A stretch of DNA of 64,000 nt from a virus: IMG/VR virus record IMGVR_UViG_3300048592_000229, positions 4,385 through 68,384 of that record; one strand, written 5' to 3'. Below the pieces are notes generated by a model, which did not search any database, was not told the DNA's origin, and worked only from the letters and a program-made list of their open reading frames with translations. Shown here in pieces: positions 44,875-62,806 of the stretch (positions are counted from its first letter, which is position 1; every line of letters starts with the position of its first letter). A program made the translations under genes and the position numbers.

Positions 44875-45909
44875 ATGCTTCCACCCGGAACGCGAAACCT
44901 GCTGTGGGGCGGTGCCACCGCCACACAACTTGGCATCACCACGCAGCCGGCATTCCATTCCGGCGCTGCATCAGCCACGTTCGGTACGTCGCCCGTAGTC
45001 AAAGCGTACCTGTCGGACGGCACCACGGTTGACACCGCCTACACCGGCACAGTAACGGCCGCGCTGGTAACTGCCAACGGCGCGACACTCGGCTCCACCA
45101 CCAGCGTGGCGTGCGTGGCTGGCGTGGCCACGTTCGATGATCTGGACGTTGACACGGCCGGCGCGTACCAGATCGTTTTTACGGCCTCCGGACTAACCAG
45201 TGCGACCAGCAACTGGTTCGTGGTCGGCGCTGCGATGTTGCTGCGTGCTGACGCTGGCGTATCCGATACGGGCGGGCTGGTGGACACATGGGCCGATCAA
45301 AGCGGCAACAGCCGAGACTTCACTGGCGTGACGACCGCGCGGCCGACCGTGAGCGCCGTTCCTGATCTTGATTTCGATGGTGGCGACAAGCTGACAAAGA
45401 GCGGATGGGCGCTCAGTGCAACCTCCCCGAAAACTGCCATCGTGGTATTCCAGGCAGACACCGACAACACGCGAAACCAACTGATCAACACTCGGCACGC
45501 GTCTAACCGTGGCTGGTCGTTTGAAACACAAGCAGACGGCACAATCAGGCTCATCTACCTTGCGAACACAGGCAGCTGGGCAATCACGTCAGACTCTGAC
45601 GTTGGAGACATCACGGCATGGCAGACCGCAGCATTCGCCGCTGACGGTGCTGGTGATGCGGACCTTTACGTGAACGGAGGCGCAGTAGCGGCTACTGCAA
45701 CCGGCAGCGACCCTCCCGATGGAGACGGCACGTCTACGTATCTGGGAGATATCGGCTACGTTAGTGCCGGGCAGTTGAACGGCAAGATCGCCGCAGTTGC
45801 TGCCTTCGCGAGCGAGTTGTCTGCCGCTCAGGTTGCCGCCGTGCACAACGCGTTGCGACAGGAACTCGCCACATTCGCAAATCCGATCAGCCTGCCGGCT
45901 GCGTCATGA
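44875..45909 (+). CDS. Ig-like plus LamG/ConA-like domain protein (adhesin candidate)
   Basis: QLGITTQP...GVATFDDL; WADQSGN, FDGGD, LYVNG, NGKIA, ELSAAQV. Confidence 0.75.
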   Translation: MLPPGTRNLLWGGATATQLGITTQPAFHSGAASATFGTSPVVKAYLSDGTTVDTAYTGTVTAALVTANGATLGSTTSVACVAGVATFDDLDVDTAGAYQIVFTASGLTSATSNWFVVGAAMLLRADAGVSDTGGLVDTWADQSGNSRDFTGVTTARPTVSAVPDLDFDGGDKLTKSGWALSATSPKTAIVVFQADTDNTRNQLINTRHASNRGWSFETQADGTIRLIYLANTGSWAITSDSDVGDITAWQTAAFAADGAGDADLYVNGGAVAATATGSDPPDGDGTSTYLGDIGYVSAGQLNGKIAAVAAFASELSAAQVAAVHNALRQELATFANPISLPAAS

Positions 45910-45946
45910 GACGCGCCGAAGGACAGCCCGGCCCACGCGCTGCCGC

Positions 45947-46315
45947 TCACGGCCAGTTGATGCCCGCCTCGGCCTCCGCGCCGAGCAACGTCACGCACAC
46001 CTCGCGAGCCATCGCCACGCGCGACTGGTGCAGCGGCGCAGCCCACCACGCCTCGCGAAGCATGTCGTCCACGGCCGCCCACCGCTCCACGGCCACGCTG
46101 TCACCGGCTGCCATCGCAACTCGGCGGCGGTCGTCGCACTGTGAGCGGGCGGCGGCGATTGCGGCGCGTGCGGTGTGCGCTTCGGGCAGGCGCTGGGGGC
46201 GTCCGGCGGTCGGGTCGTCCAGCGCGTCGGGGTCGTAGCACATGCTGCTGCTGGGGCTGAGTGTCGGGTCGAGGAACGCATCGTGTTCCCCGCCAAAGAA
46301 TTGGTTGCTGTACAT
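45947..46315 (-). CDS. hypothetical early protein
   Basis: AAGGAG RBS on the minus strand. Confidence 0.55.
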   Translation of the reverse strand: MYSNQFFGGEHDAFLDPTLSPSSSMCYDPDALDDPTAGRPQRLPEAHTARAAIAAARSQCDDRRRVAMAAGDSVAVERWAAVDDMLREAWWAAPLHQSRVAMAREVCVTLLGAEAEAGINWP

Positions 46316-46399
46316 CGTGTCTCCTTTGCCGGCGGGACCGGGCGACCCGAAGGCCGCCCGGCGTGCGGCGGGAATGGCCCTTGCGGGGCCGGGTGAGTA

Positions 46400-46729
46400 T
46401 CAGCAGCCCCGGTCCCGCGCCCATGCGCGTTCATCCTCGCGCCGGTCGTCGGCCGCTTCGTTGCAGGCGGCGCAAACGCCGTCGTCGTCGGTGGGTTCGC
46501 CGTCCGGGTCCACCGGCTCGCCGCAGCTTGCGCAGGGCTCCCAGGTGACACGCTCCAAGTCGTTGAGGATGCCGGCGCATTCCTGCGCGTCCGGCTGGTC
46601 GTACCACCAGGCGGTGCCGTCTGTGATGCCGTCAGGGGCGGGAGCATCGTTGTCGGCGAGCAGAATCAGGTCGTCGTCGGTCAGGCCGGGGATGATCCAG
46701 CCGCAGCCGTTGTGTTTGATCGTGTACAT
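46400..46729 (-). CDS. acidic zinc-finger hypothetical protein
   Basis: CASC...CAAC; CCGGAG RBS. Confidence 0.65.
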   Translation of the reverse strand: MYTIKHNGCGWIIPGLTDDDLILLADNDAPAPDGITDGTAWWYDQPDAQECAGILNDLERVTWEPCASCGEPVDPDGEPTDDDGVCAACNEAADDRREDERAWARDRGC

Positions 46730-46754
46730 GGCGTTCTCCGGTTGGCGTGTGAGG

Positions 46755-46961
46755 TTAGCGTGCGGCTGCCAAGGCCAGAGCCTTGCGGATGATTGCCTTC
46801 TCGCTGCGCGGCGTCAGCGAGTGGCACAGGGTGTAGATTCTGCCGTCCCACACCCGCACGCGAATCGGCGCGGCGTCCATCGTGTCAATCATCACCTGAT
46901 GGCTGGCAGCAGGCTCGTTGCTCCACGGCTTGCAGCGCGCGGTGTAGCAGATTTGCGTCAT
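46755..46961 (-). CDS. hypothetical protein
   Basis: Start MTQICY after CCGGAG RBS; VRVWD...YTLCHSL. Confidence 0.6.
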   Translation of the reverse strand: MTQICYTARCKPWSNEPAASHQVMIDTMDAAPIRVRVWDGRIYTLCHSLTPRSEKAIIRKALALAAAR

Positions 46962-46983
46962 CGGTCTTTCTCCGGTTGGTGAT

Positions 46984-47205
46984 TCAGGCAGCCAGCGCGG
47001 CAGCCGTGGTCGGAATGATGCCGCCGTTGCGGCCGATGCGAGCGGCGCGGAGGTAGCCGAGCATGTACGCGCGGCGGGCCTTGCTGCCACGGCGACGACC
47101 GGACAGGCGGGCAGCGGTTGCAACGTCGGTGCGGCCGTCGCGGTACATGGCGATGTGGTAGGCGATGAGGCCGCGTTCAAAGTGGTGGCGTTCGTGAGTG
47201 GTCAT
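46984..47205 (-). CDS. hypothetical basic protein
   Basis: First gene after the leftward promoter; CGGAG RBS. Confidence 0.6.
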   Translation of the reverse strand: MTTHERHHFERGLIAYHIAMYRDGRTDVATAARLSGRRRGSKARRAYMLGYLRAARIGRNGGIIPTTAAALAA

Positions 47206-47240
47206 GGTTCTGGCTCCGTGTGGTGTGCTTCGATAGTTGG

Positions 47241-47269
47241 AGTATCGGCCACGCGGCGGCGGAAGTCAA
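47241..47269 (-). promoter_or_regulatory. leftward sigma70-type promoter
   Basis: Minus strand TTGACT-17 bp-GATACT. Confidence 0.7.
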
Positions 47270-47283
47270 AAAGATTTTTCATT

Positions 47284-47312
47284 TTGCCAAACGACAAACC
47301 GCGTCGTAAGGT
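47284..47312 (+). promoter_or_regulatory. rightward sigma70-type promoter
   Basis: TTGCCA-17 bp-TAAGGT; AT-rich tract between the two -35 boxes. Confidence 0.65.
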
Positions 47313-47342
47313 TCCGGCGTTAGGCAAACACGGAGACACGGC

Positions 47343-47522
47343 ATGGCCCGTATCAACATCGAGATTAGCGACGACTTGCACGCCTGGCTGGCCGCCAAGG
47401 CCGCGCGGGAGTTTGCGTTCAAGACCAACAACACGCGCGGCAACATCAGCGCGGCGGCAAACGAGATTCTGGAGAAGGCGCGGAAGCGCAGTCGGACACC
47501 AAAGAAAAAGGCGTCAAAGTGA
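47343..47522 (+). CDS. Arc-like ribbon-helix-helix regulator (59 aa)
   Basis: MARINIEISDDLHAWL...NISAAANEILE; GGAG RBS; missed by the ORF track. Confidence 0.7.
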   Translation: MARINIEISDDLHAWLAAKAAREFAFKTNNTRGNISAAANEILEKARKRSRTPKKKASK

Positions 47523-48007
47523 ACTACCGCGAAATGATCCGGCGCGACAAGCTGGCTCGTCTGCGCATGAAGTCGCAAGCCGAGAAGCCACAGGCCCAGC
47601 CAGTGAAGCAACAGTCAGAACTAGGACGCGGCGACAAGCCTGCCCGAAACGGCCAGAAAACGCCGTATCTGTGCGTGATCTGCGGTTGTGATATCGAGGA
47701 TCAGCGAGCCGGTCTGCGCGGAGCAACCAACCAGCCGTGCGAGGACTGCGCGCACCGCATCCAGTACGTGGCGGATGACCTGATTGACAAGGCCGACAAG
47801 AAACTGCGCAAACTGCCGGCGTGTCGGCATCTGTCCGCCCCACTTCGCAACGGTAGCAGGCTGCGCATAGTGGCAGCGGAGCGTCGGAGCATCGTCGTGG
47901 AACTGCGCGAGAAGCACGACGCAACATGGGGCATGATCGCCAAGGCGCTCGGCTACCGGAACCACTCCAGCGCCACACACGCATACTGGAAGGCGAAGAA
48001 GCCGTGA
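47519..48007 (+). CDS. zinc-finger plus HTH (DnaA C-terminal-like) protein
   Basis: CVIC...CEDC; TWGMIAKALGYRNHSSATHA. Confidence 0.65.
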   Translation: MNYREMIRRDKLARLRMKSQAEKPQAQPVKQQSELGRGDKPARNGQKTPYLCVICGCDIEDQRAGLRGATNQPCEDCAHRIQYVADDLIDKADKKLRKLPACRHLSAPLRNGSRLRIVAAERRSIVVELREKHDATWGMIAKALGYRNHSSATHAYWKAKKP

Positions 48008-48195
48008 CCGACCTTCGCATCCGCACAATCCCGACGCCGCGCGGGACCATCGCAATCGTGCAGTGCGCGCTTGGCATTGAGCGACACCGCACCGAGCCGC
48101 AGAGCAGCCAACTACCGAGCAACGCCGAGCGGTTCGCGCGGGAGGCGGCCGAATCGTGGATCGCAGAACACAACCGACAAAGGAGCAAGCGATGA
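48004..48195 (+). CDS. hypothetical protein
   Basis: GTGA coupling. Confidence 0.45.
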   Translation: MTDLRIRTIPTPRGTIAIVQCALGIERHRTEPQSSQLPSNAERFAREAAESWIAEHNRQRSKR

Positions 48196-48542
48196 GCAAG
48201 TCAACACCTGGGCCGTGGTCAGTCGCATCGGATCAACGACGGCCGTACACAGTTGCGACAACTACAGACGGGCTCGCCGCTTCGTTTGTCGTTTGTGCAG
48301 GCGAGGACACCGGCGGCGGACCGTTTTGGCCGGAATGGCGAGATGGCGGGAAAGACGTTGCTCGTGCAAACGCCAAATTGATCGCAGCCGCGCCTGATCT
48401 GCTGGAAGTCGTCAAGCATCTTGCGGAGTGCGGCATCTCCCCGTGCGAGGACGACCCCAAGTACAGCGAGGCCATCGTGCTTGTCGAGATGATCCACAAG
48501 GCACGCGCCGCCATCGCGAAGGCCGAAGGCGGTGCATCGTGA
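48192..48542 (+). CDS. conserved phage hypothetical protein
   Basis: TPGPW...ANAKLIAAAPDLLE...ARAAIAKAEG. Confidence 0.75.
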   Translation: MSKSTPGPWSVASDQRRPYTVATTTDGLAASFVVCAGEDTGGGPFWPEWRDGGKDVARANAKLIAAAPDLLEVVKHLAECGISPCEDDPKYSEAIVLVEMIHKARAAIAKAEGGAS

Positions 48543-48663
48543 AGCTGCTGCACTACCTGCTACTGCCGCTGTCCGTGCTGGTCGCGCTGGCGTCTGCCGC
48601 GTGGGCCGACCTGACGCGCAAGGCCGATGACGACCGCGAGAACGATGCTGCGTGGAGGCAAGG

Positions 48664-48990
48664 ATGAACAAGGTCTACACCGTATTCGGCCAGTCCGGTC
48701 AGTACAGCGACTGGCGCATGTGGGCTGTCCGTGCGTTCGGCGCAAAGGACGATGCGGATACGTTCGCCGAACGACTCAACAGCATCGTGAAGCGGAATCT
48801 GGCGGCCATCGAGGAAGCCGACGAAGAAGCGGACTACCCGGCGATTGATGCCGCCGTTGCGAAGTACCACAAGGAACTGATCGAAGCTGGCGAGGAACTG
48901 GCCGGCGACCTTGACGAGTGGACGATGCGCGGGTGCAACGAGCCGTCTTACCACGTCGAGGAAATCGACTTCACGGAGGCCACCAAGTGA
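48664..48990 (+). CDS. hypothetical protein
   Basis: GGAGG RBS; VYTVFGQSGQYSD...YHVEEI. Confidence 0.65.
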   Translation: MNKVYTVFGQSGQYSDWRMWAVRAFGAKDDADTFAERLNSIVKRNLAAIEEADEEADYPAIDAAVAKYHKELIEAGEELAGDLDEWTMRGCNEPSYHVEEIDFTEATK

Positions 48991-49958
48991 CCGAACTTCC
49001 CGCATCATGGACGCCAGACCCGGCCGCTGGTGCTGGCGCAATCGAGCGCCCGCTGCACCAGTCCACCATCGACCGCGTGAACATCGGCTCGCGTTATTTC
49101 GCCGGTGAGAGGGCTGTTTGGAGCGGTACTGTAATTGGAACGGCCGGCCATCTCGCGCAGGCTGACCGCTACGCCGGCAAGCCGCTGCGCCCGGCGCGCG
49201 AATACTGGAACGAGGCCGTGGCCGCAGAGGAAGCGGATGGCCGCGCAATCCGGTTCTTCAAGGATGGCAGCAAGACACAGGCGGATGCCGTCGAGGCGGC
49301 AGAGTCGATGGGATGGACGCTGAACGAGTGGTGCCACGACAACGCCGCGCAGAAGCTGTCCGCGCGCATGGAGACGTGCGACAGGTTGCACCAACACATC
49401 TTGGGCGGTGTGGTGCTGGTTGAGAAGCAATTCATCGTGTGCGATCCGGTCACTGGAATCTGGTACGAAGGAACGGCAGATTTAGTGTCCGGCGGGCCTT
49501 CCGGAGTCTGCACGACCGTCTATGATTGGAAGTTTGGCGGGCGTTCACCGGCTGATCCGGCCGACACATACAAGCCGCCGGCATGGACGACAAGCCCGCA
49601 GCCACACGTCTACATGCTGGCGATGCTCCACGGCTGGTGGGCAGATGCGCCGAACCTGCCGGGCCTGCACCAGATAGACTGGAAGAACCGCGCCAGCGAG
49701 TTTCAGCGGTTCGGCGTGTGGCCAGTGCAGTTCATCTTCGCGCACATCCAGAGCATGAAGTGGGACGAACACGGGCGGCTGGAGCGCGGGCTGGTGCCGG
49801 TGGTGACGGCCGAGCCGTGGTCGTGGGCATACGTGCGCGAGTTGACGCGGCAGTGGCGCGAGGCGTACCCGGACGAGGCGCGCGGCAATCGGCGCACGAC
49901 TGTGCCGGCAAACTTTGATTGGGACACATGGGCGAACAACGGAGCGAACGATGAGTGA
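48987..49958 (+). CDS. PD-(D/E)xK (RecB/Cas4-like) exonuclease
   Basis: VEKQF, GTADLV, VYDWKFG, QPHVY; adjacent to ERF. Confidence 0.75.
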   Translation: MTELPASWTPDPAAGAGAIERPLHQSTIDRVNIGSRYFAGERAVWSGTVIGTAGHLAQADRYAGKPLRPAREYWNEAVAAEEADGRAIRFFKDGSKTQADAVEAAESMGWTLNEWCHDNAAQKLSARMETCDRLHQHILGGVVLVEKQFIVCDPVTGIWYEGTADLVSGGPSGVCTTVYDWKFGGRSPADPADTYKPPAWTTSPQPHVYMLAMLHGWWADAPNLPGLHQIDWKNRASEFQRFGVWPVQFIFAHIQSMKWDEHGRLERGLVPVVTAEPWSWAYVRELTRQWREAYPDEARGNRRTTVPANFDWDTWANNGANDE

Positions 49959-50580
49959 CAAGCCAGCAGTACACGCCGCAATCGCGGCCGTGATGGCCGA
50001 GATTCAGCCGGTGGCCAAGGGGCGACAGAACACGCAGCAGAACTACCGATTCCGTGGCATCGCGGACGTGTACGCGGCCTGCCAGCGTGTGATGGCGGCG
50101 AAAGGCCTGCACATCACGCCACACGCAATCGTCGGTCAGATTGACAGCGAGCGCAAAACATCGAAGGGCGGTGCGCTGTTCGTCGTTCGGCTGACGACGC
50201 AGTTCCGCATCTACCACGCCGATGGCTCGTTCGTCGAACTGATGACGGTCGGTGAGGGCATGGACAGCGGAGACAAGGCCGCAAACAAGGCGATGAGCGC
50301 GGCCATGAAGTACGCGCTGATCCAGGCGTTCTGCCTGCCCGAGGACCACCCGGACGAGCCGGAGAACGATTCGCACGAAGTCGCGCACCGCGGCGAATCG
50401 AAGGCCGCCGATCCGTTGGACGCGCTGCGCGATGCCTACAAGCGTTGCGCAGCCGAGCGCGGAAAGGAGAAGGCGCAGAGCATCATGGCCAGCCGCAAGG
50501 CACCGGCCGACATGGACGCAGACGAAATCGCGGCCACCGTGGCCAATCTGGAATACGCCATCAACCACCCGGAGAGCTGA
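49951..50580 (+). CDS. ERF-family single-strand annealing protein
   Basis: YRFRGIADV, GEGMDSGDKAANKAMSAAMKYAL. Confidence 0.85.
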   Translation: MSDKPAVHAAIAAVMAEIQPVAKGRQNTQQNYRFRGIADVYAACQRVMAAKGLHITPHAIVGQIDSERKTSKGGALFVVRLTTQFRIYHADGSFVELMTVGEGMDSGDKAANKAMSAAMKYALIQAFCLPEDHPDEPENDSHEVAHRGESKAADPLDALRDAYKRCAAERGKEKAQSIMASRKAPADMDADEIAATVANLEYAINHPES

Positions 50581-50582
50581 TC

Positions 50583-51020
50583 ATGGCAGGAAAGTACTAC
50601 GACACCAACAGCGTCATCCTCATCGGCCGAATCGGCAGCGACCCCGGCGAGTTGCGCCACGCAGGCGAGCATCCCGTGTGTGATCTGCGGCTGGCGGTCA
50701 GCGACGGCGACAAAACGTGCTGGGTTGACGTGACGTGCTGGCGGCAGACCGCGCAGTTTGTGGCCGACTACTGCCGCAAGGGGCACCGCGTGTGCGTCCG
50801 TGGCCGGCTCACGATGGACGAATGGAACGACAAGGAAAGCGGCCAGAAGCGCAGCAAGATCAAGGTCACTGCGGACGGCGTGCAGATGCTGACTGAGAAG
50901 GGCGAGGACGGTGGCCGTGACGAGCGGCCTGCACGCGAACCGGAACGCCGGCCGGTGCGTGACAATGGCGGCGGCAGTCCGCTCAAGGACTACGGGCTGG
51001 ACGACGACGCCCCTTTTTGA
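50583..51020 (+). CDS. ssb: single-stranded DNA-binding protein
   Basis: NSVILIGRIGSDP, KGHRVCVRGRL, C-terminal DDDAPF. Confidence 0.92.
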   Translation: MAGKYYDTNSVILIGRIGSDPGELRHAGEHPVCDLRLAVSDGDKTCWVDVTCWRQTAQFVADYCRKGHRVCVRGRLTMDEWNDKESGQKRSKIKVTADGVQMLTEKGEDGGRDERPAREPERRPVRDNGGGSPLKDYGLDDDAPF

Positions 51021-51024
51021 CCCC

Positions 51025-51256
51025 GGCGCAGACGCTGGACAGCTACGACCTGGACGATGAGGTTCCCGAGCCTCGTGGCGGAAAGCAGAATCGTTTGCGC
51101 CAATCAATGCCGTGGGAAGGCTGCAACGAACCAGACGATGGCCCCGACCCCGGAGGGTGGGGAAGCTAACTGGCAACTGATCGGCGCACGTCCCGCAGCC
51201 GACGCCCGACGCCCGCCTTGTGCGGGCTTAGGGCAGTGAAGGGCAAACCACACGGA
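51025..51256 (+). ncRNA. putative structured ncRNA(s)
   Basis: 245-bp intergenic gap with nested stems GGCGCAGACG/CGTTTGCGCC, GGCTGC/GCAGCC, GCCCGC/GCGGGC, CCGTG/CACGG. Confidence 0.4.
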
Positions 51257-51264
51257 GTAAGGGA

Positions 51265-51783
51265 ATGGCAAAGAAGCGCGACCACGCCGAGAAAATACCG
51301 GCACTCTGCCGCATCCATTCGATACCGGAGCCGGCCAGAGAGCACGAGTTTGTGCCCGGCCGCAAGTTCCGGTTCGACGCCGCATGGCCTGCGCATCGTG
51401 TGGCGGTGGAGATTCACGGCGGCGAGTGGATCGGCGGCGGGCACAGCCGGGGACATGTGTTCTCGGCCGACCAGGAGAAGATGCGACACGCCGCGCTATT
51501 GGGATGGCGCGTACTGCCGTTTACGGGAGAGGATTTGGCGAAGTATCAGGGCATGGTGGTGGCGTGCATCCGGGCCGCGCTGTCTGCCGAGAACCACCCG
51601 ATCACCAATGCGCTGAACAATACCGGCGACTTGACGGCGCGTGAGCGAGTAGGGCTGGCGCATGAGGCGTTTGCCGAAATGGCGCGCGCTTCGGCTGACC
51701 GGCGCGAGCGTCTGAACAAGGCGCGAAAGAAGCGAGCAAAGAAAAAGGCCGCGCAGTTTGCCGATGGCAAAAAGCTGGAGTAG
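51265..51783 (+). CDS. Vsr/DUF559-like PD-(D/E)xK endonuclease
   Basis: REHEF..GRKFRFDAAWP..VAVEIHGG...DQEK...GWRVL. Confidence 0.75.
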   Translation: MAKKRDHAEKIPALCRIHSIPEPAREHEFVPGRKFRFDAAWPAHRVAVEIHGGEWIGGGHSRGHVFSADQEKMRHAALLGWRVLPFTGEDLAKYQGMVVACIRAALSAENHPITNALNNTGDLTARERVGLAHEAFAEMARASADRRERLNKARKKRAKKKAAQFADGKKLE

Positions 51784-51786
51784 ACT
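51758..51786 (+). promoter_or_regulatory. sigma70-type promoter
   Basis: TTGCCG-17 bp-TAGACT. Confidence 0.6.
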
Positions 51787-51805
51787 TCCGTCACAATTCA
51801 ATCGG

Positions 51806-51894
51806 GCGCGTCGGGCTAGCGGCGCGTAAAGCTGTCGGACGTACAACGTCCGCGCTACCGCCGGTCGCGTACCTCTAGCCGGGTACGCGGCCGG
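51806..51894 (+). ncRNA. three-hairpin kissing-loop leader RNA (copy A)
   Basis: Loop GGCTAG (51814-19) complementary to loop CTAGCC (51875-80). Confidence 0.6.
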
Positions 51895-51914
51895 TCTGCG
51901 TTTGGAGGCGAAAG

Positions 51915-52202
51915 ATGGAAGGACCACGGGACAGGATCAGAACTGCGGCGCGCAACTACGATGGCGCGAAGCAGCGAGCGGAGGACGATCTGGATACGGC
52001 CGTAGACCGCGCGATGGACGATATCGAGCGCGACCTGGCGGCCGGTTCGGACAACTTCGATGAAGCGCGGCAGTCAATCGAATCGGCGATTGCCGCCGGC
52101 CGCGAACGGTGGCTGCGGCTCACGCTGCACGGCATGGGACTGGCCGAAGCAAACGCGCGGGCAATGGCGCGCTGGCTGATCGAGCGGGAGGCGTCACGAT
52201 GA
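51915..52202 (+). CDS. hypothetical protein
   Basis: GGAGG RBS. Confidence 0.6.
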   Translation: MEGPRDRIRTAARNYDGAKQRAEDDLDTAVDRAMDDIERDLAAGSDNFDEARQSIESAIAAGRERWLRLTLHGMGLAEANARAMARWLIEREASR

Positions 52203-53578
52203 GTTACGCCGACTTTTTGCAACGCAAGGTGCAACACGGGACCGCGCACGGCTTCGAGCCGCTGTGGATGCCGGACGCGCTGTTCCCGTTCCAGCGCACG
52301 CTATGCGAGTGGGCGATCCGCCGGGGGCGCGCGGCACTGCTGGAGGATTGCGGACTTGGTAAGACCTTGCAGCAGCTGGTCATTGCCGAGAACGTCGTCC
52401 GCCACACCAACCGGCCGGCGTTGATCCTTACGCCGCTGGCCGTGGCGCAACAGACCGTGCGCGAAGCCGAGAAGTTCGGCATCGAGGCGGTGCGGTGCGT
52501 GGACGGCAAGCCGAAGCCCGGCGCGCGGATCGTGGTCACGAACTACGAGAAGCTGCACCTGTTCGATACCGACGCATTCGACCTGATCGTGTGCGACGAA
52601 TCGGGCATCCTCAAAAACTTCGACGGCAAGCGCAAGGCACAGGTTACGGAGGCGCTGCGCACCCGGCCGTACCGGCTGGAATGCACCGCCACGGCCGCGC
52701 CGAATGACTACATCGAACTCGGCACGCACGCCGAGGCGCTGGGCGAGATGGGCTACATGGATATGCTCTCGGCGTTCTTCAAGAACGACCAGAACACCAG
52801 CAAGGTAAACCGCAATTGGGACGGTGCGCAGTGGCGGTTCAAGGGACACGCCGAAGAATCGTTCTGGCGCTGGGTCTGCTCATGGGCGCGTGCGTGCCGG
52901 CGGCCGTCCGACTTGGGCTTTGACGACGACGGGTTCATTCTGCCGGAACTGATCGAAAGCCAACACACGGTCGGCGGCCCGCGAATCCTGCCGGGCGAGT
53001 TGTTCGAGTCGGTAGCCGTGGGACTGCGCGAGCAGCGCGAGGAACGCCGCCGCACGATTGACGAGCGGTGCGCGAAGGTCGCGGAGTTGGTGGCGCACGA
53101 CCGCCCGGCGGTGGTGTGGTGTCACCTGAACCCCGAGGGCGATGCGCTGGAGAAGCTGATCACCGACGCCATCCAGGTGAGCGGCCGGGACAGCGACGAC
53201 GCGAAAGAGGCGAAGCTGGTCGCGTTCACCGAAGGCCAAGCGCGCGTGCTCATCACGAAGCCGAAGATTGGCGCGTGGGGGCTGAACTGGCAGCACTGCG
53301 CACACATGACGTTCTTCCCGTCGCACAGCTTCGAGCAGTACTACCAGGCCGTTCGCCGCTGCCTGCGGTTCGGCCAGACGCAGACCGTGCAGGTGGATGT
53401 GGTCACGTCGCACGGAGAAGCCGACGTGATGGCCAACCTGCAACGCAAGGCCGATCAGGCCGACCGCATGTTTACTGAACTGGTGCGGCTGATGAACGAC
53501 GAATTGCGCATCAAGCGCAGCAACCCATTCAACACCGAAAGCGAGGTTCCCGCATGGCTGTCCACGCCCAGCAACTGA
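52199..53578 (+). CDS. SNF2-like SF2 helicase
   Basis: DCGLGKT, TNYE, VCDES, TATAAPND, GLNWQ, QAVRRCLRFGQ. Confidence 0.88.
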   Translation: MSYADFLQRKVQHGTAHGFEPLWMPDALFPFQRTLCEWAIRRGRAALLEDCGLGKTLQQLVIAENVVRHTNRPALILTPLAVAQQTVREAEKFGIEAVRCVDGKPKPGARIVVTNYEKLHLFDTDAFDLIVCDESGILKNFDGKRKAQVTEALRTRPYRLECTATAAPNDYIELGTHAEALGEMGYMDMLSAFFKNDQNTSKVNRNWDGAQWRFKGHAEESFWRWVCSWARACRRPSDLGFDDDGFILPELIESQHTVGGPRILPGELFESVAVGLREQREERRRTIDERCAKVAELVAHDRPAVVWCHLNPEGDALEKLITDAIQVSGRDSDDAKEAKLVAFTEGQARVLITKPKIGAWGLNWQHCAHMTFFPSHSFEQYYQAVRRCLRFGQTQTVQVDVVTSHGEADVMANLQRKADQADRMFTELVRLMNDELRIKRSNPFNTESEVPAWLSTPSN

Positions 53579-54666
53579 CCGATCAGTACGCCATCTACAA
53601 TGGCGATTGCCTTGAAGTGATGCCAACGATGCCCGCAGGATCGCTCGGGCTGTCGGTGTACTCGCCGCCGTTCGGCGGTCTGTACCACTACACCAGCAGC
53701 GAACGCGACCTGTCGAACTGCCGCAGCTACGAGGAGTTCTTTGAACACTACGCATTCGTTGTGCGCGAACTGCACCGGCTGACCATGCCCGGTCGGATGA
53801 CGTGCGTGCATTGTATGGACGTGCCGAGCGGGAACAGTGGCAAGGATCATCTTCGCGACTTCCCCGGCGATATCATCCGCCTGCACGAAACCGAAGGGTG
53901 GGACTACATTGCGCGATACGCCGTGTGGAAAGAGCCACTCGGCGTTCGCAATCGGACTATGGCAAAGAATCTCGCGCACAAGACCATCGTCGAGGATTCG
54001 TCGCGGTGTTCGGTGGCGTCGGCCGACTACCTGCTGGTGTTCCGCAAGCGCGGGGAGAACCCGGTGGCCATCGCGCACCCCACCGGCCTGATGGGATACG
54101 CCGGTGCGCGCGAGATTCCGGCCGAACTGTTGAAGTACCGCGGCTGGACCGGCAAGCAGACCGAGAACCGCTACAGCCACTGGATCTGGCGACAGTACGC
54201 GAGCGCTTTCTGGGACGACGTGCGGATTGACCGCGTGCTGCCGTTCCGTGAGGCGCGCGACGACCAGGACGAGAAGCACGTGCACCCGCTGCAGCTCGAC
54301 GTGATCGAGCGGTGCGTGATCCTGTGGAGCAACCCCGGCGATGTGGTCGGCTCGCCGTTCGGCGGTGTCGGCAGCGAGCCATACGGCGCCGTGATCAACG
54401 GACGCAAGGCGTGGGCCGTGGAGTTGAAGCCGTCCTACTACCGACAGCTCGAGAAGAACATGGAGGCCGCCGCCGGCAACCAGCCGGTGGCCGACCAGCC
54501 CGGGCTGTTCGACACGCTGGCCGACGAGTCCGACGACGGCGTGTCCGGCACCTACGTGCAGACGCGCGAGAATCCGAACATCCCCGACCAGATACAGACC
54601 GGCCTGCCGGTCGCCACCCGCACCAAGCCCGCGCGCAAGCGCACGAAGAAGGACAACGCACAATGA
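53554..54666 (+). CDS. DNA N4-C/N6-A methyltransferase
   Basis: GDCLE, SPPF, HVHPLQ, SPFGGVGS, VELK. Confidence 0.88.
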   Translation: MAVHAQQLTDQYAIYNGDCLEVMPTMPAGSLGLSVYSPPFGGLYHYTSSERDLSNCRSYEEFFEHYAFVVRELHRLTMPGRMTCVHCMDVPSGNSGKDHLRDFPGDIIRLHETEGWDYIARYAVWKEPLGVRNRTMAKNLAHKTIVEDSSRCSVASADYLLVFRKRGENPVAIAHPTGLMGYAGAREIPAELLKYRGWTGKQTENRYSHWIWRQYASAFWDDVRIDRVLPFREARDDQDEKHVHPLQLDVIERCVILWSNPGDVVGSPFGGVGSEPYGAVINGRKAWAVELKPSYYRQLEKNMEAAAGNQPVADQPGLFDTLADESDDGVSGTYVQTRENPNIPDQIQTGLPVATRTKPARKRTKKDNAQ

Positions 54667-55817
54667 CTACCGCAACCACATCGGCCGCTATCGACTGCCC
54701 GCGTGCCGCCCTGCAATCCGCACTGGACCCGCTCGCCAAGCTTGCACCGCAGCGCGGGCCGCACCCGATCTGTGCAAACGTGCTGATCGAGTACACGCGC
54801 GCCGACGCGGCCGACCCCGGCGAGTGCTGGCTCACGGCAACCAACATGGAAACCACGCTCCGGCTCCGGCTCGCTGGAGTTGTCGGCCAGCCGGTGCGGC
54901 TGCTGGTTCCGGCCAAGCGATTGCACGAGGCCGTCCGGTCCCTGCCCGGCGACGACGTGACGCTGCGCGAGCATGACGGCAAGCTGATCGTGGCCGCGCG
55001 ACGCGACAAGGTAACCATCGGATGCTTCGACCCGGCCGACTTCCCGGTGATTGCTACCGACGATGATCCGCCGATTGCGTCGGCACAGTGTGCGGCTTTC
55101 GCGCGTGCGCTCGACACGGCCGCTGCGTGCATGGCCGAAGAGCGTACGCGTTACTCGCTGAATGGCGTATTCATCGACACGGCCGACTCGCTGCGATTTG
55201 TCGGAAGCGAGGGCAGCATGATTGTCTATCGCGTTGTGACCGACAAGGCAACGCCCCTGAATCAACACTCGATCATTCCCGGAAAGGCGGCGAAGCTGGC
55301 GGCACAGGTGCTCGCCACGCTGGACGGCGAGTGTGATCTGGTGGTGACTGAAAACCACGCGGCATTCGAGACGCCCGGCTGCGTGTTGCGTTGCCAGTTG
55401 CTCGCCGGTCTGTACCCGGCCTATCGTCAGGTGCTGCCGGACACGGAAAAGCACGATATCCGGGTGACGCTGGGCCGCAATGACCTGATGGCAGCACTTC
55501 GGCGGCTGGCCGTGGCGAAGGGCGAGACGGAGAAGGGTGTCGGCACGACCGAGTGCGCCCGCTGCCGCGTCACGCCGACCGCGCTGCACCTGACGATGCG
55601 CGGCGACGACGCCACGGCCGATAGCACCGTGGATTGTGAGTCCACGCTGGAATCCGGCATGGAAATGGAAATCGGCCTGGATCGCGGAAAGCTGGTGGCC
55701 GGGCTGACGGGCGCGCCGGATCGCGTGACGCTGATGATGCGCGACCACGAGAAAGCGCCGGTAGTGATCGAGGATGATGGCTTCCTGTACATGCTCATGC
55801 CGATGGAGTTGTCATGA
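54663..55817 (+). CDS. dnaN: DNA polymerase III beta sliding clamp
   Basis: ATNME, DFP, RYSLNGV, GLYPAY, YMLMPM. Confidence 0.85.
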   Translation: MTTATTSAAIDCPRAALQSALDPLAKLAPQRGPHPICANVLIEYTRADAADPGECWLTATNMETTLRLRLAGVVGQPVRLLVPAKRLHEAVRSLPGDDVTLREHDGKLIVAARRDKVTIGCFDPADFPVIATDDDPPIASAQCAAFARALDTAAACMAEERTRYSLNGVFIDTADSLRFVGSEGSMIVYRVVTDKATPLNQHSIIPGKAAKLAAQVLATLDGECDLVVTENHAAFETPGCVLRCQLLAGLYPAYRQVLPDTEKHDIRVTLGRNDLMAALRRLAVAKGETEKGVGTTECARCRVTPTALHLTMRGDDATADSTVDCESTLESGMEMEIGLDRGKLVAGLTGAPDRVTLMMRDHEKAPVVIEDDGFLYMLMPMELS

Positions 55818-56122
55818 TCATCCACACGCAAGCATCCACCGAAACACTCGCCACGTCCGCCGCCGAGTTTGCATCGGCAGCCGTGACCGCCGCCGCACTG
55901 GAATGCTCACGGGCGCGCACGGTGTCCGCCGCGAGGGCCGCATTCGCCGAATGGTGGGAGGCTGTGCGCCACGAATGGGCATGGCTGGGTCCGGACGTGC
56001 AGGTGATGCACGACGTTGCACGGGCCGCGTGGAATGGCGTCGTGCGTGGGCGCGAAAGCGCGATCCTGAGCAGGGGCGCAAAGCCACGATTCGCGCGGCA
56101 GACGCGCACGGAGGCGAAATGA
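55814..56122 (+). CDS. hypothetical protein
   Basis: Coupled ATGA junctions. Confidence 0.55.
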   Translation: MIIHTQASTETLATSAAEFASAAVTAAALECSRARTVSAARAAFAEWWEAVRHEWAWLGPDVQVMHDVARAAWNGVVRGRESAILSRGAKPRFARQTRTEAK

Positions 56123-56520
56123 GACGTGAACTGGACGTGAAGGTGGCCGAGGCGCTGGGCTGGGGAGTGTGGGAGTGGCAGGCTCCGCGAGGCGGCGATT
56201 CGCTGCTAATCACCCCGCCCGGCGACGATCCGAACAGGTATTTGCGTGACGAATACGACCCGCTTCCGTGGGTGCGAGTGCCATTCGATGCGTCCCGCAA
56301 GTGGGGCGACTGGTCGAACACCGGGAAGGGCGTCCCACACTATTCCACCGACACAGAAGCGTCGGTGGAACTGTGGGCCGAGCATCTTCCGGCAGGCTGG
56401 TCATTCAGCCACATCAACAGTTGGGTCGGAAGCGACAACAAGACGAAACTGCGAGCAAGCGGCCGGTCGCTACCCGAGGCCATCTGCAACGCGATTCTCG
56501 CTGTGAAGGAGGCGAAATGA
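56119..56520 (+). CDS. phage hypothetical protein (ABA-sandwich-like)
   Basis: ELDVKVAEALGW...PHYSTD...PEAIC. Confidence 0.65.
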   Translation: MRRELDVKVAEALGWGVWEWQAPRGGDSLLITPPGDDPNRYLRDEYDPLPWVRVPFDASRKWGDWSNTGKGVPHYSTDTEASVELWAEHLPAGWSFSHINSWVGSDNKTKLRASGRSLPEAICNAILAVKEAK

Positions 56521-56894
56521 GCGAGCGACGTTCCCCATTCCACTGCGGAAGCCAACACGCCGATTGGGAGTCGGCCAACTGCGGCAACTGCCGCAAGGGC
56601 TGCGCTGACGAATCAAACTTCATCGAGGCTTGTAGGTGCCCGATACAGTGGGCGGTCTCCGAGGCCGGCATGTTGGACGGCACAGTGTCGGCCGAAATAT
56701 ACGAGCGCATGGGCGCTTCCGACTTCGAGGGGCATCTGACGTGGCCGTGCCGGGAGATTGACCCGGTGAACGACGACGTGGCCGAATCCGTGCGGAAAAT
56801 GCGCGCACGCAAGCTGGCCGAGAACGCCGGTCGAAAGGGCGTGTCTGACGATGTGAAGTGGACGGACGTTGTGAATGAAAGCGATGCGAAATGA
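56517..56894 (+). CDS. Cys-rich hypothetical protein
   Basis: NCGNC, CPI, WPC. Confidence 0.6.
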   Translation: MSERRSPFHCGSQHADWESANCGNCRKGCADESNFIEACRCPIQWAVSEAGMLDGTVSAEIYERMGASDFEGHLTWPCREIDPVNDDVAESVRKMRARKLAENAGRKGVSDDVKWTDVVNESDAK

Positions 56895-57331
56895 GCCTGC
56901 CCAACGACTGGCCCACGATGAAGCAGGCCGCGCCAAACAACCTGCCGGCCGATCAACGCGCCGTGCGGCTGCTGGAGGAATCATCATCCGGGCTGATCCA
57001 CCACGACGGCAGCGGCGATCCAAAGCGCATCCTACAGCAAGACGAAGGCCCGCTGCGCCCGCACGCCGGGCCGCTACTCGCAGACGCCGCAATCGCGCGC
57101 GCAGCCGTGGGAATCGAGACCTACGGATCTGCGCTCACGCGAAACAACGGCCGCAACCAAGCCGTGGATGCCTTGCAGGAACTGGCGGATGCCGTGTGCT
57201 ACCTCGCCGCGTGGTGGGACGAACTACCAGAGGGCGAGGCGAAGCGGTGCGTCGAGCATGCGATCTGCCGGCTGCGGTACGCGGCACAGTTCATCGAGAC
57301 AGCCGAGAAGGAGCAAGCCAATGCCGATTGA
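56891..57331 (+). CDS. MazG-like/all-alpha nucleotide-metabolism protein
   Basis: GIETYGSAL..NNGRN...DALQELADAVCY. Confidence 0.5.
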   Translation: MSLPNDWPTMKQAAPNNLPADQRAVRLLEESSSGLIHHDGSGDPKRILQQDEGPLRPHAGPLLADAAIARAAVGIETYGSALTRNNGRNQAVDALQELADAVCYLAAWWDELPEGEAKRCVEHAICRLRYAAQFIETAEKEQANAD

Positions 57332-57620
57332 CTTGGACGCAATCGAGAAGGCCGCGCGGCTCGCGCTGGCCGTTGACGCCGAGAGCAAGGCTGCCGGCAA
57401 CAAGGGCATGCCGATGCAGATGCCGCCGGCCGACGTGCTAGAGTTGGTCGAGCAAGTGCGAGATCGTGACCACATCAAGGCACATCGTGACGCGCTGCTT
57501 GCTGCCTTTGAGAAATGGGAGCGCGGCCCGGTAGCGCCGTATGGTTCGTTGCCGCCATTTATCCAGGTCGCAAGCGACGAATTGAAGCGCGCCATCAAGG
57601 CAGCAAAGGAGGCGAAATGA
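57321..57620 (+). CDS. hypothetical protein (Ead/Ea22-like)
   Basis: IDLDAIEKAA...PADVLELVEQV; AAGGAG RBS. Confidence 0.55.
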   Translation: MPIDLDAIEKAARLALAVDAESKAAGNKGMPMQMPPADVLELVEQVRDRDHIKAHRDALLAAFEKWERGPVAPYGSLPPFIQVASDELKRAIKAAKEAK

Positions 57621-58069
57621 GCGAGTACCCAATACCGGCCGACCTCCACGTTGCGTACCACACGGCCGCGCGCCGCAAAGACTTGATGGGCGCGGCAACG
57701 TGCCTCCTGATTGAGCGCATCGCGCGGCTGGAGGCTGAGCGTGCCATGATTCATTGCATCCGCGAGGGGCTTGACTCTGGCTTGCAAGTCGCGGCAACAC
57801 ACGCCGACGACCTGCGCAATCGGCTGGAGCGTGCCGAGGCACAACTGGCCGCGAGCAACGAGGCCTACGAGCAGAGCCAGAAGGCCGCCACCGACATCAT
57901 GGCGATTGCCGAGCAGCGAGCGAAGCGGCTGGAGCGCGCCGAGGCGCTGCTGCGCGAGTGCGTGGACCCGTCATACCGCACGCCGGCTGCAAAGACCGTG
58001 GAGCATGTGTGCGAGTTTCTCGGGCTGGACAAGCCGGGCGAACTGGCAGAGAGGGAGGCGAAGCCGTGA
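57617..58069 (+). CDS. coiled-coil hypothetical protein
   Basis: Repeated RLERAEA; AAGGAGG RBS. Confidence 0.6.
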   Translation: MSEYPIPADLHVAYHTAARRKDLMGAATCLLIERIARLEAERAMIHCIREGLDSGLQVAATHADDLRNRLERAEAQLAASNEAYEQSQKAATDIMAIAEQRAKRLERAEALLRECVDPSYRTPAAKTVEHVCEFLGLDKPGELAEREAKP

Positions 58070-58222
58070 GCGAGCGCAAGAAACCCATGCGCTGGCGCTA
58101 CGTAAATGACGGACGTGGATACTACGAACTGCGCCGAGAAGGTGTGTTAATGGCAACCGTCTGGTACGTCTGGCCGCCGCCCGGCAAACTGTCGGGCGGC
58201 GGCCCCTTGTCGGAGAGAACAA

Positions 58223-58417
58223 ATGAGCATGATCAGAATTCCGAAGTGCGGAGACCTGTTCACCGTAGAAGAATGGAGTACGGAAGAGTATCAGCATATG
58301 TTCAGCCCAGATGATGGGGATGGTCACTGGGCGACCGCTACGCACACAGATTATAGTAGTGTCTTCAACACTCCGCGGCCCAAATGGGCAACTCACGTCG
58401 TCTGGTTCAACAAATGA
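58223..58417 (+). CDS. hypothetical protein in an AT-richer patch
   Basis: GGAG RBS; DDGDGHWA...WATHVVWFNK. Confidence 0.6.
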   Translation: MSMIRIPKCGDLFTVEEWSTEEYQHMFSPDDGDGHWATATHTDYSSVFNTPRPKWATHVVWFNK

Positions 58418-58677
58418 GTGAGAGACATGCCCAATGCTGGGGCTTCAGCAGCTTGACGGAATGCAAGTTGTCCGACAACGGCGACTTCATCTCCATCAAG
58501 TTCCCCTACGACAAGGTAGACAACCACGTCTTCATCCGCTTGCTCAACATCCAGTGCTTTGACAACTACCAAGACGAACGGATCATCATCGTGACGTCAG
58601 CGGCGACGTACTACCTGTCATCCAGTAACAAGACTCTGATCCAGCAGATCGAACGACTGCTGGTAGAAAGTTTGTGA
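58414..58677 (+). CDS. hypothetical protein
   Basis: ATGA coupling. Confidence 0.5.
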   Translation: MSERHAQCWGFSSLTECKLSDNGDFISIKFPYDKVDNHVFIRLLNIQCFDNYQDERIIIVTSAATYYLSSSNKTLIQQIERLLVESL

Positions 58678-59095
58678 CCATGAAGTTGTTCATCCCGCCG
58701 CTTGGCACGAAGATGAAACTGACGAAGGACTGGACATTCACGCTCCACAGGGAACACAGGAACGACACCTTGTGGTCTGTTCTACGCGGAAGGATGGTTC
58801 GTCTGGCGTGCCGACAAGCCAGTGCATGGCACTGGTCGCGAGACGAAGCCCGAGAAGGCGAAGGCCGTAGCCGTCAGGTTTGTGAAGCGGCAGGAGGCGA
58901 GCAGTGCCGAATGATCGAGCAACACAGACGCCGCCGGGCGTCGTCTACAAGTTCAAGCAGAGTGCGCCGGCAACGATCGACGGCAGATGCCCGTACTGCG
59001 GCGCGCTTGTGGCTCGTGACCATTGCCCGTGCCGTCCAGTTTCGCCGCCGAAGGGATGGCTCCACCGAATACAATCCGATGATCTGGAGTGATGC

Positions 59096-59124
59096 TTGAC
59101 TCCCGCCGACAGGCATCGTAGTAT
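59096..59124 (+). promoter_or_regulatory. sigma70-type promoter
   Basis: TTGACT-17 bp-TAGTAT. Confidence 0.75.
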
Positions 59125-59130
59125 CCAACC

Positions 59131-59243
59131 ACGCCCGCGCATGCTCGCACCTTGCGCACACGGCGACAATTCTGTTTGCCCGGCCTACGGCTGGGGCATC
59201 GGACCGGAAGGATGCGTGCGAGGCGTCCTGACGGTCCGTGTGC
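59131..59243 (+). ncRNA. three-hairpin kissing-loop leader RNA (copy B)
   Basis: Loop CTCGCAC complementary to loop GTGCGAG; shares GGCGACAATTCTGTTTGC and CGGACCG/CGGTCCG with copy C. Confidence 0.75.
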
Positions 59244-59259
59244 ATTTGGAGCGTGAATC

Positions 59260-59502
59260 GTGGCGAAGAAGAACCACATCCAGCTGCTGATCAACAAGCA
59301 TGCCGAAATGCTGGATGGAAACCCGTACTGCTACTTCGAGTTGGCTTACACGCGACAGACTGAGTGGATGGCGTGGATTTGCTCCAAGCCGCGCGAAATG
59401 GACCCGGGCCGCATCGTTCACTGTAGCGGGCAGGGAATGACGCCAGACGATGCGTGCAAGCACGCCCTGTCGGTTCTGGAAAAGGCGGAGGCTGCCGGCT
59501 GA
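59260..59502 (+). CDS. hypothetical protein
   Basis: TTGGAG RBS directly after leader B. Confidence 0.65.
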   Translation: MAKKNHIQLLINKHAEMLDGNPYCYFELAYTRQTEWMAWICSKPREMDPGRIVHCSGQGMTPDDACKHALSVLEKAEAAG

Positions 59503-59535
59503 TGGCCGAGAAGTGGGCCGAGTTTGACCGGGTGC

Positions 59536-59564
59536 TTGACTTCGGACGTCCGGAAGCGTAGACT
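59536..59564 (+). promoter_or_regulatory. sigma70-type promoter
   Basis: TTGACT-17 bp-TAGACT. Confidence 0.75.
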
Positions 59565-59570
59565 TCCCGC

Positions 59571-59685
59571 ACGCCAGAGAATGTGCTACTACCACATCTC
59601 GCAAGGCGACAATTCTGTTTGCGGCCGAAAGGCCAGCACCGGACCGGCGGAGGGCTGTAGTAGAGCCTTCCAACGGTCCGTGCGC
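59571..59685 (+). ncRNA. three-hairpin kissing-loop leader RNA (copy C)
   Basis: Loop CTACTAC complementary to loop GTAGTAG; GAAA tetraloop in the middle hairpin. Confidence 0.75.
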
Positions 59686-59702
59686 TATTTGGAGTGTTAG
59701 TC

Positions 59703-60161
59703 GTGAACGACACGCAGAGTATCAACGAACTTGCCGCCAGCATCCGCAGCAAGGATGCGCTTTCAGCAGATGAGCGACAGGCTCTGGACGCAGCGGCTGC
59801 GCACTTGGAATCGGCGTCGGCTTGCCTTGAAGAAGCGGCGGCGCATCGTCTGGCCGCCGAGTCGTTCCAGATGGGCAGCGTTATCGACTTGGTGGCCCGG
59901 ATGGACCCGGTAGGCCGCACCATCACAGACGCCGAGGCGGTGATCTACAACGTCTTGCAGCGCCGTGGTGGTGCCGCTCCGCTGGCTGCGGTCACACGGG
60001 CGGGCACGCTTGCCGGCATCCCGATTGACACCACTCGCAAGGCCGCGCAGCGGGCGGCAGATCGTGGCCTGATCGAGATGGTGCGCGTTGGCAAGTACAG
60101 CCGGCTTCGGCTTTCCGCCGGCATGAAGATCGTCGGCGCATCGGTGGAGGCCGCTGGCTGA
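59703..60161 (+). CDS. hypothetical protein with winged-helix-like C-terminus
   Basis: TTGGAG RBS; ITDAEAVIY...RAADRGLIEM. Confidence 0.6.
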   Translation: MNDTQSINELAASIRSKDALSADERQALDAAAAHLESASACLEEAAAHRLAAESFQMGSVIDLVARMDPVGRTITDAEAVIYNVLQRRGGAAPLAAVTRAGTLAGIPIDTTRKAAQRAADRGLIEMVRVGKYSRLRLSAGMKIVGASVEAAG

Positions 60162-62709: not shown

Positions 62710-62735
62710 GGGAGTGGCAAAAAGTAGAATGGCAC

Positions 62736-62764: not shown

Positions 62765-62806
62765 GTATTCAGCGAGGGAGAGAAAGCCACACACGGAGCC
62801 AGAGCC

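Follow-up and report, generated by a model that had tools for sequence, protein, structure and literature searches.

Does the short gap at 51758-51917 of a virus genome, just ahead of a helicase operon, hold an RNA in which two hairpin loops recognise each other, and what might such an RNA do in front of replication genes? The gap, termed here leader C (+ strand), lies in a stretch of 64,000 nucleotides, called the window throughout, which covers positions 4385-68384 of one virus record of 68,384 bp (IMGVR_UViG_3300048592_000229, 64% G+C). Control of phage replication genes is commonly ascribed to repressors, antiterminators, and promoters. In this phage, three replication operons each carry a folded leader, two tips of which match only each other. 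Leader C is most likely a non-coding 5' leader RNA with a predicted length of about 122 nt, and its two companions, leaders A (59096-59262, + strand) and B (59536-59705, + strand), follow the same layout. The element is real and uncatalogued, and it combines three hairpins, a GC-rich sequence, the lack of a terminator, and three orthogonal loop codes in one genome.

Layout and loop complementarity of three leaders

The elements of leader C were located by direct, base-by-base reading of the sequence, and the promoter, the three stems, the linker, and the ribosome-binding site (RBS) listed in a preliminary description of the locus were all recovered in place. The leader begins with a promoter-like site made up of TTGCCG (51758-51763), a 17-nt spacer, and TAGACT (51781-51786), and its predicted transcript start is the A at 51793, which belongs to a CAC and stands 7 nt past the -10 hexamer. 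Hairpin S1 pairs GCGCGTCG (51806-51813) with CGGCGCGT (51820-51827) over 8 bp, including two G-U pairs, and presents the loop GGCTAG (51814-51819). The linker AAAGCTGT (51828-51835) leads to hairpin S2 (CGGACG at 51836-51841 and CGTCCG at 51847-51852, loop TACAA), which is followed by hairpin S3, where CCGGTCGCGTACC (51861-51873) and GGTACGCGGCCGG (51882-51894) form 13 bp including one G-U pair, or 15 bp in the minimum free energy (MFE) fold. The S3 loop, TCTAGCCG, contains CTAGCC (51875-51880), the complement of the S1 loop; the loop match proposed earlier is exact over 6 nt. The ribosome-binding region TTTGGAGG (51901-51908) and the ATG of ORF95 at 51915 complete the leader (51901-51917). 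With RNAfold, all three hairpins of C appear in both the MFE and the centroid structures, at a fold energy of -62 kcal/mol (z = -2.6) that 5 of 200 shuffles equalled. The hairpins of all three leaders are likewise present in both kinds of fold, with z-scores of -2.6, -3.1, and -5.3.

The operon behind leader C begins with ORF95 (51915-52202, 95 aa), the end of which overlaps the helicase start at about 52199. Pfam and PHROG matches identify a SNF2/ResIII-type helicase, an N6/N4 DNA methylase, and a DNA polymerase III beta-clamp-like gene at 52199-55817 (+ strand). On the upstream side, the promoter-like site overlaps the TAG stop (51781-51783) of a 172-aa gene and, since this stop lies inside the -10 hexamer, leader C is also part of any read-through transcript.

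The loop complementarity of the leaders exceeds chance. A hairpin-pair descriptor was run on dinucleotide shuffles, 3000 per leader, and a loop match of at least the observed quality was obtained in none of them for C, in none for B, and in 9 for A. A loose match, defined as a 6-mer with 5-bp stems, was reached by 190 (C), 26 (B), and 171 (A) of the 3000, and the 68-kb genome holds about 20 loose loop matches per strand. Thus, the concern that comparable complementarity arises often in shuffled GC-rich leaders applies to loose matches, which are common in GC-rich DNA, but not to matches of the observed quality. Six matches remained on the + strand across the genome when the second hairpin had, in addition, to be followed by an RBS and a 50-codon ORF; three of the six are these leaders. 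Moreover, the three loop pairs are mutually orthogonal: the cognate loop duplexes have energies of -11.5, -7.1, and -9.9 kcal/mol (the last value for C), whereas all six non-cognate combinations reach -3.2 kcal/mol or weaker.

The leaders are also non-coding and overlap no credible ORF. The G+C content at third codon positions (GC3) is 0.56-0.69 for ORFs that overlap the leaders on either strand, compared with 0.74-0.86 in the neighbouring genes, and these overlapping ORFs gave no Pfam match. Within leader C there is no ORF initiated by ATG, GTG, or TTG; A and B each contain an ATG within S1, and no RBS stands ahead of it.

Leaders A and B repeat this anatomy on the + strand some 7 to 8 kb further on. 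The promoter of A consists of TTGACT, 17 nt, and TAGTAT. Its S1 (59137-59157) carries the loop core CTCGCAC (59144-59150), and the 18-nt linker GGCGACAATTCTGTTTGC (59162-59179) leads to S2 (59180-59194) and to S3, which has a base (59201-59206 / 59232-59237), a tip (59210-59228), and the loop GTGCGAG (59216-59222). The RBS TTTGGAG (59245-59251) then precedes the GTG start of ORF80 at 59260. In leader B, the promoter reads TTGACT, 17 nt, TAGACT, and S1 (59577-59600) presents the loop CTACTAC (59586-59592). The same 18-nt linker (59605-59622) connects it to S2 (59623-59634) and to S3 (base 59641-59646 / 59674-59679, tip 59649-59671, loop GTAGTAG 59657-59663), and TTTGGAG (59688-59694) stands ahead of the GTG start of ORF152 at 59703. 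In both copies S3 is a long hairpin broken by an internal loop, and the GTG start lies 8 nt past GGAG. Leader A precedes an 80-aa gene. Behind leader B come a 152-aa orphan gene and then a replication initiator and a helicase of the DnaB type (Pfam, PHROG).

A and B are clear homologues. They are identical in the linker (18/18), in the two strands of the S3 base (6/6 each), and in the RBS (7/7), whereas identity is lower in the hairpins, with 12/24 positions in S1, 8/15 in S2, and 15/23 in the S3 tip. Within the 7-nt loop pair, the three central positions differ and each change is compensated, while the other four pairs are the same; the covariation between A and B therefore amounts to three double changes, not seven.

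The proposal that C is a third copy of this 59-kb layout, set between a promoter-like site and the RBS of the helicase, methylase, and clamp genes, was borne out. It had also been described as having a third loop code and little primary identity to the other two. The loop words of C are indeed its own, but several short elements are shared: the -10 context GTAGACTTCC is common to B and C, and all three copies possess a CAC 6-8 nt after the -10 hexamer, (A/G)TTTGGAG at the RBS, and the rare word ACAATTC. This word occurs seven times on the + strand of the genome, three of them in the leaders, and it is located 5' of S1 in C and 3' of S1 in A and B. The length of the leader varies from 122 to 132 nt across the copies. 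A CTGT linker, formerly listed among the shared features, is a mere 4-mer and carries no weight. Furthermore, the structural alignment of the three copies that had been suggested as a check did not succeed, as MAFFT and RNAalifold left the hairpins out of register and returned a meaningless consensus (-15.5 kcal/mol, covariation term +1.43). Consequently, there is no covariance model, and the correspondence between C and the pair is architectural, drawn by eye. Structure and loop pairing are kept while the letters change, as the preliminary description had argued, but the searches made found no member of the RNA family it envisaged outside this genome.

The three leaders occupy gaps of 130-200 nt in one long + strand gene block, and the stop codons of the upstream genes fall inside or just before the promoter-like sites. 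A and B are spaced only 440 nt apart, and all three leaders stand ahead of replication functions. Other promoter-like sites of the phage are followed by short, purine-rich, and unstructured leaders, so that the structured leader is special to three replication-related operons. A second class of promoter-like site, TTGNNN, 17 nt, TAGTCT or TACTAT, is present at 62736-62810, at 63789-63850, and at genome positions 2125-2200, which lie outside the window; its short purine-rich leaders end in GGAGC(N)AGAGCCATG or similar.

Two further observations concern the surroundings of leaders A and B. The segment at 58300-59100, just upstream of leader A, is lower in G+C and has ORFs of weak GC3 (0.64 for 58674-59099), so this DNA may have been inserted recently. 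Promoter B has the 10-bp palindrome CGGACGTCCG (59543-59552) in its spacer, and half-sites closely resembling it occur in S2 of C (51836-51852, CGGACG / CGTCCG) and, as CGGACCG / CGGTCCG, in the S3 base of A (59200-59207 / 59231-59238) and of B (59640-59647 / 59673-59680). These similar sites could represent a common protein-binding word or a coincidence in GC-rich DNA.

Relatives and analogues

Searches for relatives covered known RNA families, phage and viral collections, and the loci of homologous neighbour genes. The 4227 models of Rfam gave nothing at the leaders, either at the gathering score over the whole window or at E up to 10 on 51700-51960 and 59080-59720. The sole Rfam match in the window is a tRNA-Gly with anticodon UCC at 9354-9424 (58.9 bits), which sits inside a spurious 271-codon ORF of the crude gene call. 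Similarly, no leader match was obtained when the helicase region and the two leader regions were compared by blastn with 50,697 phage records. A 14-mer of the A/B linker was followed in viral contigs, where, among the matches listed, 116 loci were examined and all were due to chance; the full 18-mer occurred at 32 loci in 185,579 species genomes, all apparently by chance and mostly within genes. Literature searches listed no description of a phage leader of this kind.

The neighbouring genes offered few routes to relatives. In viral contigs, close relatives were lacking for ORF152, ORF95, the replication initiator, and the 172-aa protein upstream of leader C; for the initiator, none was found in metagenome contigs either, and a set of 5.8 billion proteins contained no homologue of ORF95 or ORF152. 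A leader of this type is also absent from three known phages whose initiator is related. The helicase is widespread, with homologues at 50-67% identity, and 160 of its homologue loci showed no clear strand excess of kissing hairpins (56 on the + strand vs 61 on the - strand in the first 80; 36 vs 23 in all 160 with an RBS filter). ORF80 (59260-59502) belongs to a conserved small-protein family with the motif NPYCYFELAYTRQTEWMAWIC and 46 outside homologues, and it gave no Pfam or PHROG match. Its homologues include prophages of Caballeronia, Paraburkholderia, Comamonas, Paludibacterium, and Acinetobacter, with Burkholderiales among them. This hints at a proteobacterial host and is the only host clue. 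Of 57 ORF80-homologue loci, the flanks of 16 were read and five near-matches were folded; in these, the gene lies among closely spaced ORFs with no leader.

A promoter-plus-RBS pattern was scanned as well. In viral contigs it retrieved 16 loci (11 distinct sequences), which are analogues and no homologues; in species genomes it retrieved 14 loci, none with loop pairing, and in metagenome contigs two, both due to chance. The most similar species-genome locus was rejected because it falls inside a 151-aa ORF (L398).

Several of the pattern-scan loci, from unrelated, AT-richer phages that are uncultured, carry structured leaders of like logic, in which a promoter, a hairpin, a second hairpin with complementary loop, and an RBS follow one another. 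One of them is L384:11569-11725 (identical to L370), where a loop GGACUAG is followed by a 19-bp second hairpin with the loop CUAGUCC, eight U, GGAG, and ATG. Its loop words are nearly those of C (GGCUAG / CUAGCC), and it directly precedes a 221-aa protein that by eye, no family search having been made, resembles replication proteins of the DUF1376/YdaU type. In L374, a 7-nt match between GUAAUGA and UCAUUAC loops stands before a gene that looks primase-polymerase-like by eye. L372 has a loop match of only 4-6 nt and precedes a small protein that by eye is like a GIY-YIG or T5orf172-type nuclease, and L383 is pseudoknot-like and lies before an HNH-like gene. An int-alpA RNA (RF02996) was matched at L372:6066-6147 on the - strand (40 bits, gathering score 35.8), abutting the promoter of the structured leader; in L374 the int-alpA match is below the gathering score (30 vs 35.8 bits).

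An additional case came from the helicase loci. L039:850-1016 has a promoter, a hairpin loop CUGACCC, a closed multiloop RNA with an unpaired GGGUCAG (a 7-nt match), and a U-tract, directly before a helicase homologue. This RNA resembles the Rfam model c4-2 (RF02944, clan CL00128) weakly, with 18.4 bits and E = 0.22 against a gathering score of 41. The four analogue loci that were scanned with Rfam contain no c4 match.

What these leaders have in common with A, B, and C is that the loop of the first hairpin complements the loop of a long second hairpin between promoter and RBS. They differ in two respects. In the analogues, but not in A, B, and C, the second hairpin or a stem around it forms an intrinsic terminator whose U-tract is 4-8 long; and the analogues are built of two hairpins or a closed multiloop, whereas A, B, and C have three separate hairpins at 64% GC. 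Sequence homology was not found by blastn of the leaders and L384 against the phage records.

Proposed role and competing readings

What the analysis shows is the anatomy, a statistical surplus of loop complementarity, three loop pairs that are orthogonal, a lack of coding content, and the setting among genes. Firing of the promoters, pairing of the loops in the RNA and within one molecule, and a regulatory output are inferred. It is proposed, with moderate confidence, that the leaders act in cis and that a loop-loop fold gates replication-gene expression via ribosome access or transcript fate. Each leader would be transcribed from its own predicted sigma-70-like promoter and, additionally, by read-through from the upstream gene. 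Once the three hairpins had formed, the apical loops of hairpins 1 and 3 would pair over 6-7 bp, and this kissing would lock the leader in one compact fold ending 7-12 nt ahead of the Shine-Dalgarno sequence. The fold would set the expression level of the first small ORF, by either of the two routes, and that level could pass to the replication genes behind it by coupling or polarity. In this manner, leader C would govern the helicase, the methylase, and the clamp, and leader B the replication initiator and DnaB. The three leaders would lie on one long rightward transcription unit, where distinct loop words would keep each loop with its own partner. Orthogonal words would be sensible even in pure cis folding, since the same transcripts carry A and B at a distance of 440 nt, where identical words would cross-pair. 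The geometry is permissive by estimate: the stack would measure about 76 Å, the bridge comprises 16 nt plus S2 in C (8 nt, S2, 8 nt) and 28 nt plus S2 in A and B, and the linkers should be long enough for cis pairing in all three copies.

There are several points that weigh against this proposal. Promoter use and the RNA ends of the leaders are predictions from sequence, and the promoter of C, with only 8 of 12 positions in agreement with the consensus, was missed by the consensus promoter scan. The folding programs used do not score the kissing interaction in context. RBS accessibility is inconsistent across the copies, the mean unpaired probability of GGAG being 0.07 in A, 0.53 in B, and 0.69 in C, so that no single masking mechanism is visible. 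Furthermore, no usable U-tract follows S3, as there is only a TTT at a distance of 1-7 nt (A-TTT-GG in A, GCTA-TTT-GG in B, TCTGCG-TTT-GG in C), and hence the termination gate of the AT-rich analogues is not evident in A, B, and C. Masking of the start codon in read-through RNA is seen in C alone. The covariation comes from three paralogues, with only three double changes between A and B. Lastly, neither the pattern scans nor the scans around neighbour-gene homologues found an outside homologue, so any "family" consists of three paralogues. This is the weak side of the case; its strong side is a clean internal replication of the design.

The start-codon masking in C involves CTTCCGTC (51784-51791, + strand), which lies just upstream of the predicted C start and is present in read-through RNA only. 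It can form an 8-bp helix with GATGGAAG (51914-51921) that spans the ATG of C, and the unpaired probability of the start codon falls from 0.46 in the own-promoter RNA to 0.00 in the read-through RNA. An 8-bp helix of this kind appears in 225 of 5000 shuffles, which is marginal, and masking by CTTCCGTC may be regarded as a weak lead from folding predictions. A common RBS-masking helix, in which the RBS region would pair with the 5' end or with the discriminator, was considered and rejected as inconsistent across copies; the longest such helix in A and B is 5 bp, a length reached in 4540/5000 and 4849/5000 shuffles.

Among the competing explanations, the best survivor, though rather unlikely, is a same-strand riboregulator like P4 CI or P1 c4. 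A hairpin, probably S3, would be cut from the leader as a stable small RNA and act in trans on the complementary hairpin loop of nascent transcripts of that leader; its pairing would block translation of the first ORF or trigger premature termination and thereby shut down the replication operon, with an own lock-and-key code per operon. Three orthogonal loop pairs are just what trans specificity would need, and the P4 leader, according to PMC4825925, encodes both CI RNA and complementary targets whose pairing halts the replication genes. The L039 RNA with its weak c4-2 match points the same way, as the loop of an upstream hairpin complements the internal loop of that RNA. However, A, B, and C yielded no c4-clan match at E up to 10, and neither a closing stem nor a U-tract is found around S2-S3. 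They also have a single upstream site, with no second loop-1 word at any RBS, unlike c4 and CI. Neither an integrase nor a repressor turned up among the 30 proteins compared with PHROGs, so there is no sign of lysogeny.

Three other readings rank lower. It is improbable that the leaders are processing, stability, or anti-polarity elements that uncouple the downstream operon from the upstream message, be it as an RNase III substrate formed by the stack of S1, kissing helix, and S3 (about 27 bp) or as a fold that shields the gap from RNase E or Rho. Their placement in gaps of the + strand block, with upstream stops in or just before the promoter-like sites, would suit such a role, as would a single-stranded AU-rich ACAATTC common to all three; the shift of this word from one side of S1 to the other between C and the pair speaks against it.

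There is little to recommend intermolecular head-to-tail kissing, by which like leaders would join into dimers or higher assemblies, or a free-standing non-coding RNA with a task outside gene control. Fully complementary loops of 6-7 nt would pair equally well in trans, the linkers of C must span the estimated stack of about 76 Å for cis pairing, and short phage-associated motifs such as manA form RNA-only multimers, as reported in bioRxiv 10.64898/2026.07.01.735769. By the same estimate, however, the linkers suffice for cis pairing in all three copies, and the element runs on, with no terminator in between, into an RBS and a start codon and hence is part of an mRNA.

A put-like RNA, which would modify RNA polymerase in cis for terminator read-through, is very improbable. 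In its favour, three operons each begin with such a structured element close to the promoter, but put RNAs, with those of HK022 as comparison, have two hairpins and are not known to show loop-loop pairing. Moreover, the scan of 45-64 kb gave 10 terminator-like sites vs 15.1 expected from shuffles, and nothing obvious needs antitermination.

Least credible of all are coincidence and a role at the level of DNA, for example as inverted repeats bound by a protein, neither of which would involve an RNA function, because only loose complementarity is common, the observed quality almost never arises in the shuffles, the layout is common to three leaders, and loop words that differ between copies could not all be read by one DNA-binding protein.

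If the loop pairing is functional, the leaders would constitute a compact RNA switch that can be reprogrammed by a few letters and supplies an orthogonal set of parts, and they would add a layer of phage control that is absent from the catalogues of RNA families. A wider view, put forward only tentatively, is that they form a GC-rich, terminator-less branch of widespread and undescribed phage control RNAs, in which selected private loop codes switch each replication operon, in cis or through a processed hairpin that acts in trans on sister transcripts or on co-infecting relatives. If this were true, phages would possess an RNA lock-and-key layer of replication control akin to the copy-number control of plasmids, encoded on the sense strand. 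Additionally, the terminator-less variant helps to separate the role of loop pairing from that of the terminator.

Comparison with known RNA systems

In ColE1 RNA I / RNA II and in HIV TAR-TAR*, fully complementary loops of 6-7 nt pair along their whole length. There, however, the pairing joins two molecules from opposite strands, whereas in the present leaders both loops belong to one strand and one leader. A closer comparison is offered by the c4 RNAs, which are characterised by a closing stem ending in a U-tract, the segments a' and b', an a2/b2 target at the RBS, and release by RNase P. As in the c4 clan, a regulator and its complementary partner would be located on the same strand of a phage leader upstream of an early gene, and the pairing segments, which lie in loops, vary in concert. 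In every copy, 6-7 nt of the S1 loop are complementary to the S3 loop, much as a1/b1 are to the loops of the regulator in c4, with a single segment in place of two. Unlike c4, A, B, and C have no conserved stem enclosing S2 and S3 and no U-tract, and, with all genome occurrences listed, no further copy of CTCGCAC, CTACTAC, or GGCTAG is found at or near the RBS of its own leader. PMC2864571 lists the c4 antisense RNA as RF01695 and c4-a1b1 without an accession. In a cmscan of the c4 clan, A, B, and C had no match at the gathering score over the whole window or at E up to 10 on the leader regions.

The leader of the P4 replication operon encodes CI RNA (seqB) and the targets seqA and seqC, and their pairing stops replication-gene expression (PMC4825925). 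The same order of promoter, internally complementary leader, and replication genes is found here, the P4 promoter being constitutive. P4 has complementary sites both upstream and downstream of CI, with premature termination in the lysogen, whereas the present leaders have only an upstream partner, and no terminator-like site follows them in the scan of 45-64 kb.

The leaders of the IncI-alpha and IncB plasmids (ColIb-P9 repZ and pMU720 repA) contain a pseudoknot that is needed for Rep translation and that an antisense RNA blocks, according to PMC8053102. In the plasmids, the partner of the loop adjoins the RBS, whereas here it is an apical loop about 24-33 nt upstream of GGAG. A translated leader peptide is required in the plasmids; here, C has no leader ORF, and the ATG codons of A and B lack an RBS and head frames of low GC3. 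The antisense RNA has no counterpart either, as the sole - strand promoter-like site in 45000-64000, by the consensus scan only, is at 47269. Long-range pairing of a hairpin loop in a replication leader would nonetheless be common to both, and among known systems IncI-alpha / IncB comes nearest in mechanism where activation by such pairing is concerned. As a principle, loop pairing on the sense strand of phage and plasmid replication leaders is already known from c4, P4 CI, and IncI-alpha / IncB.

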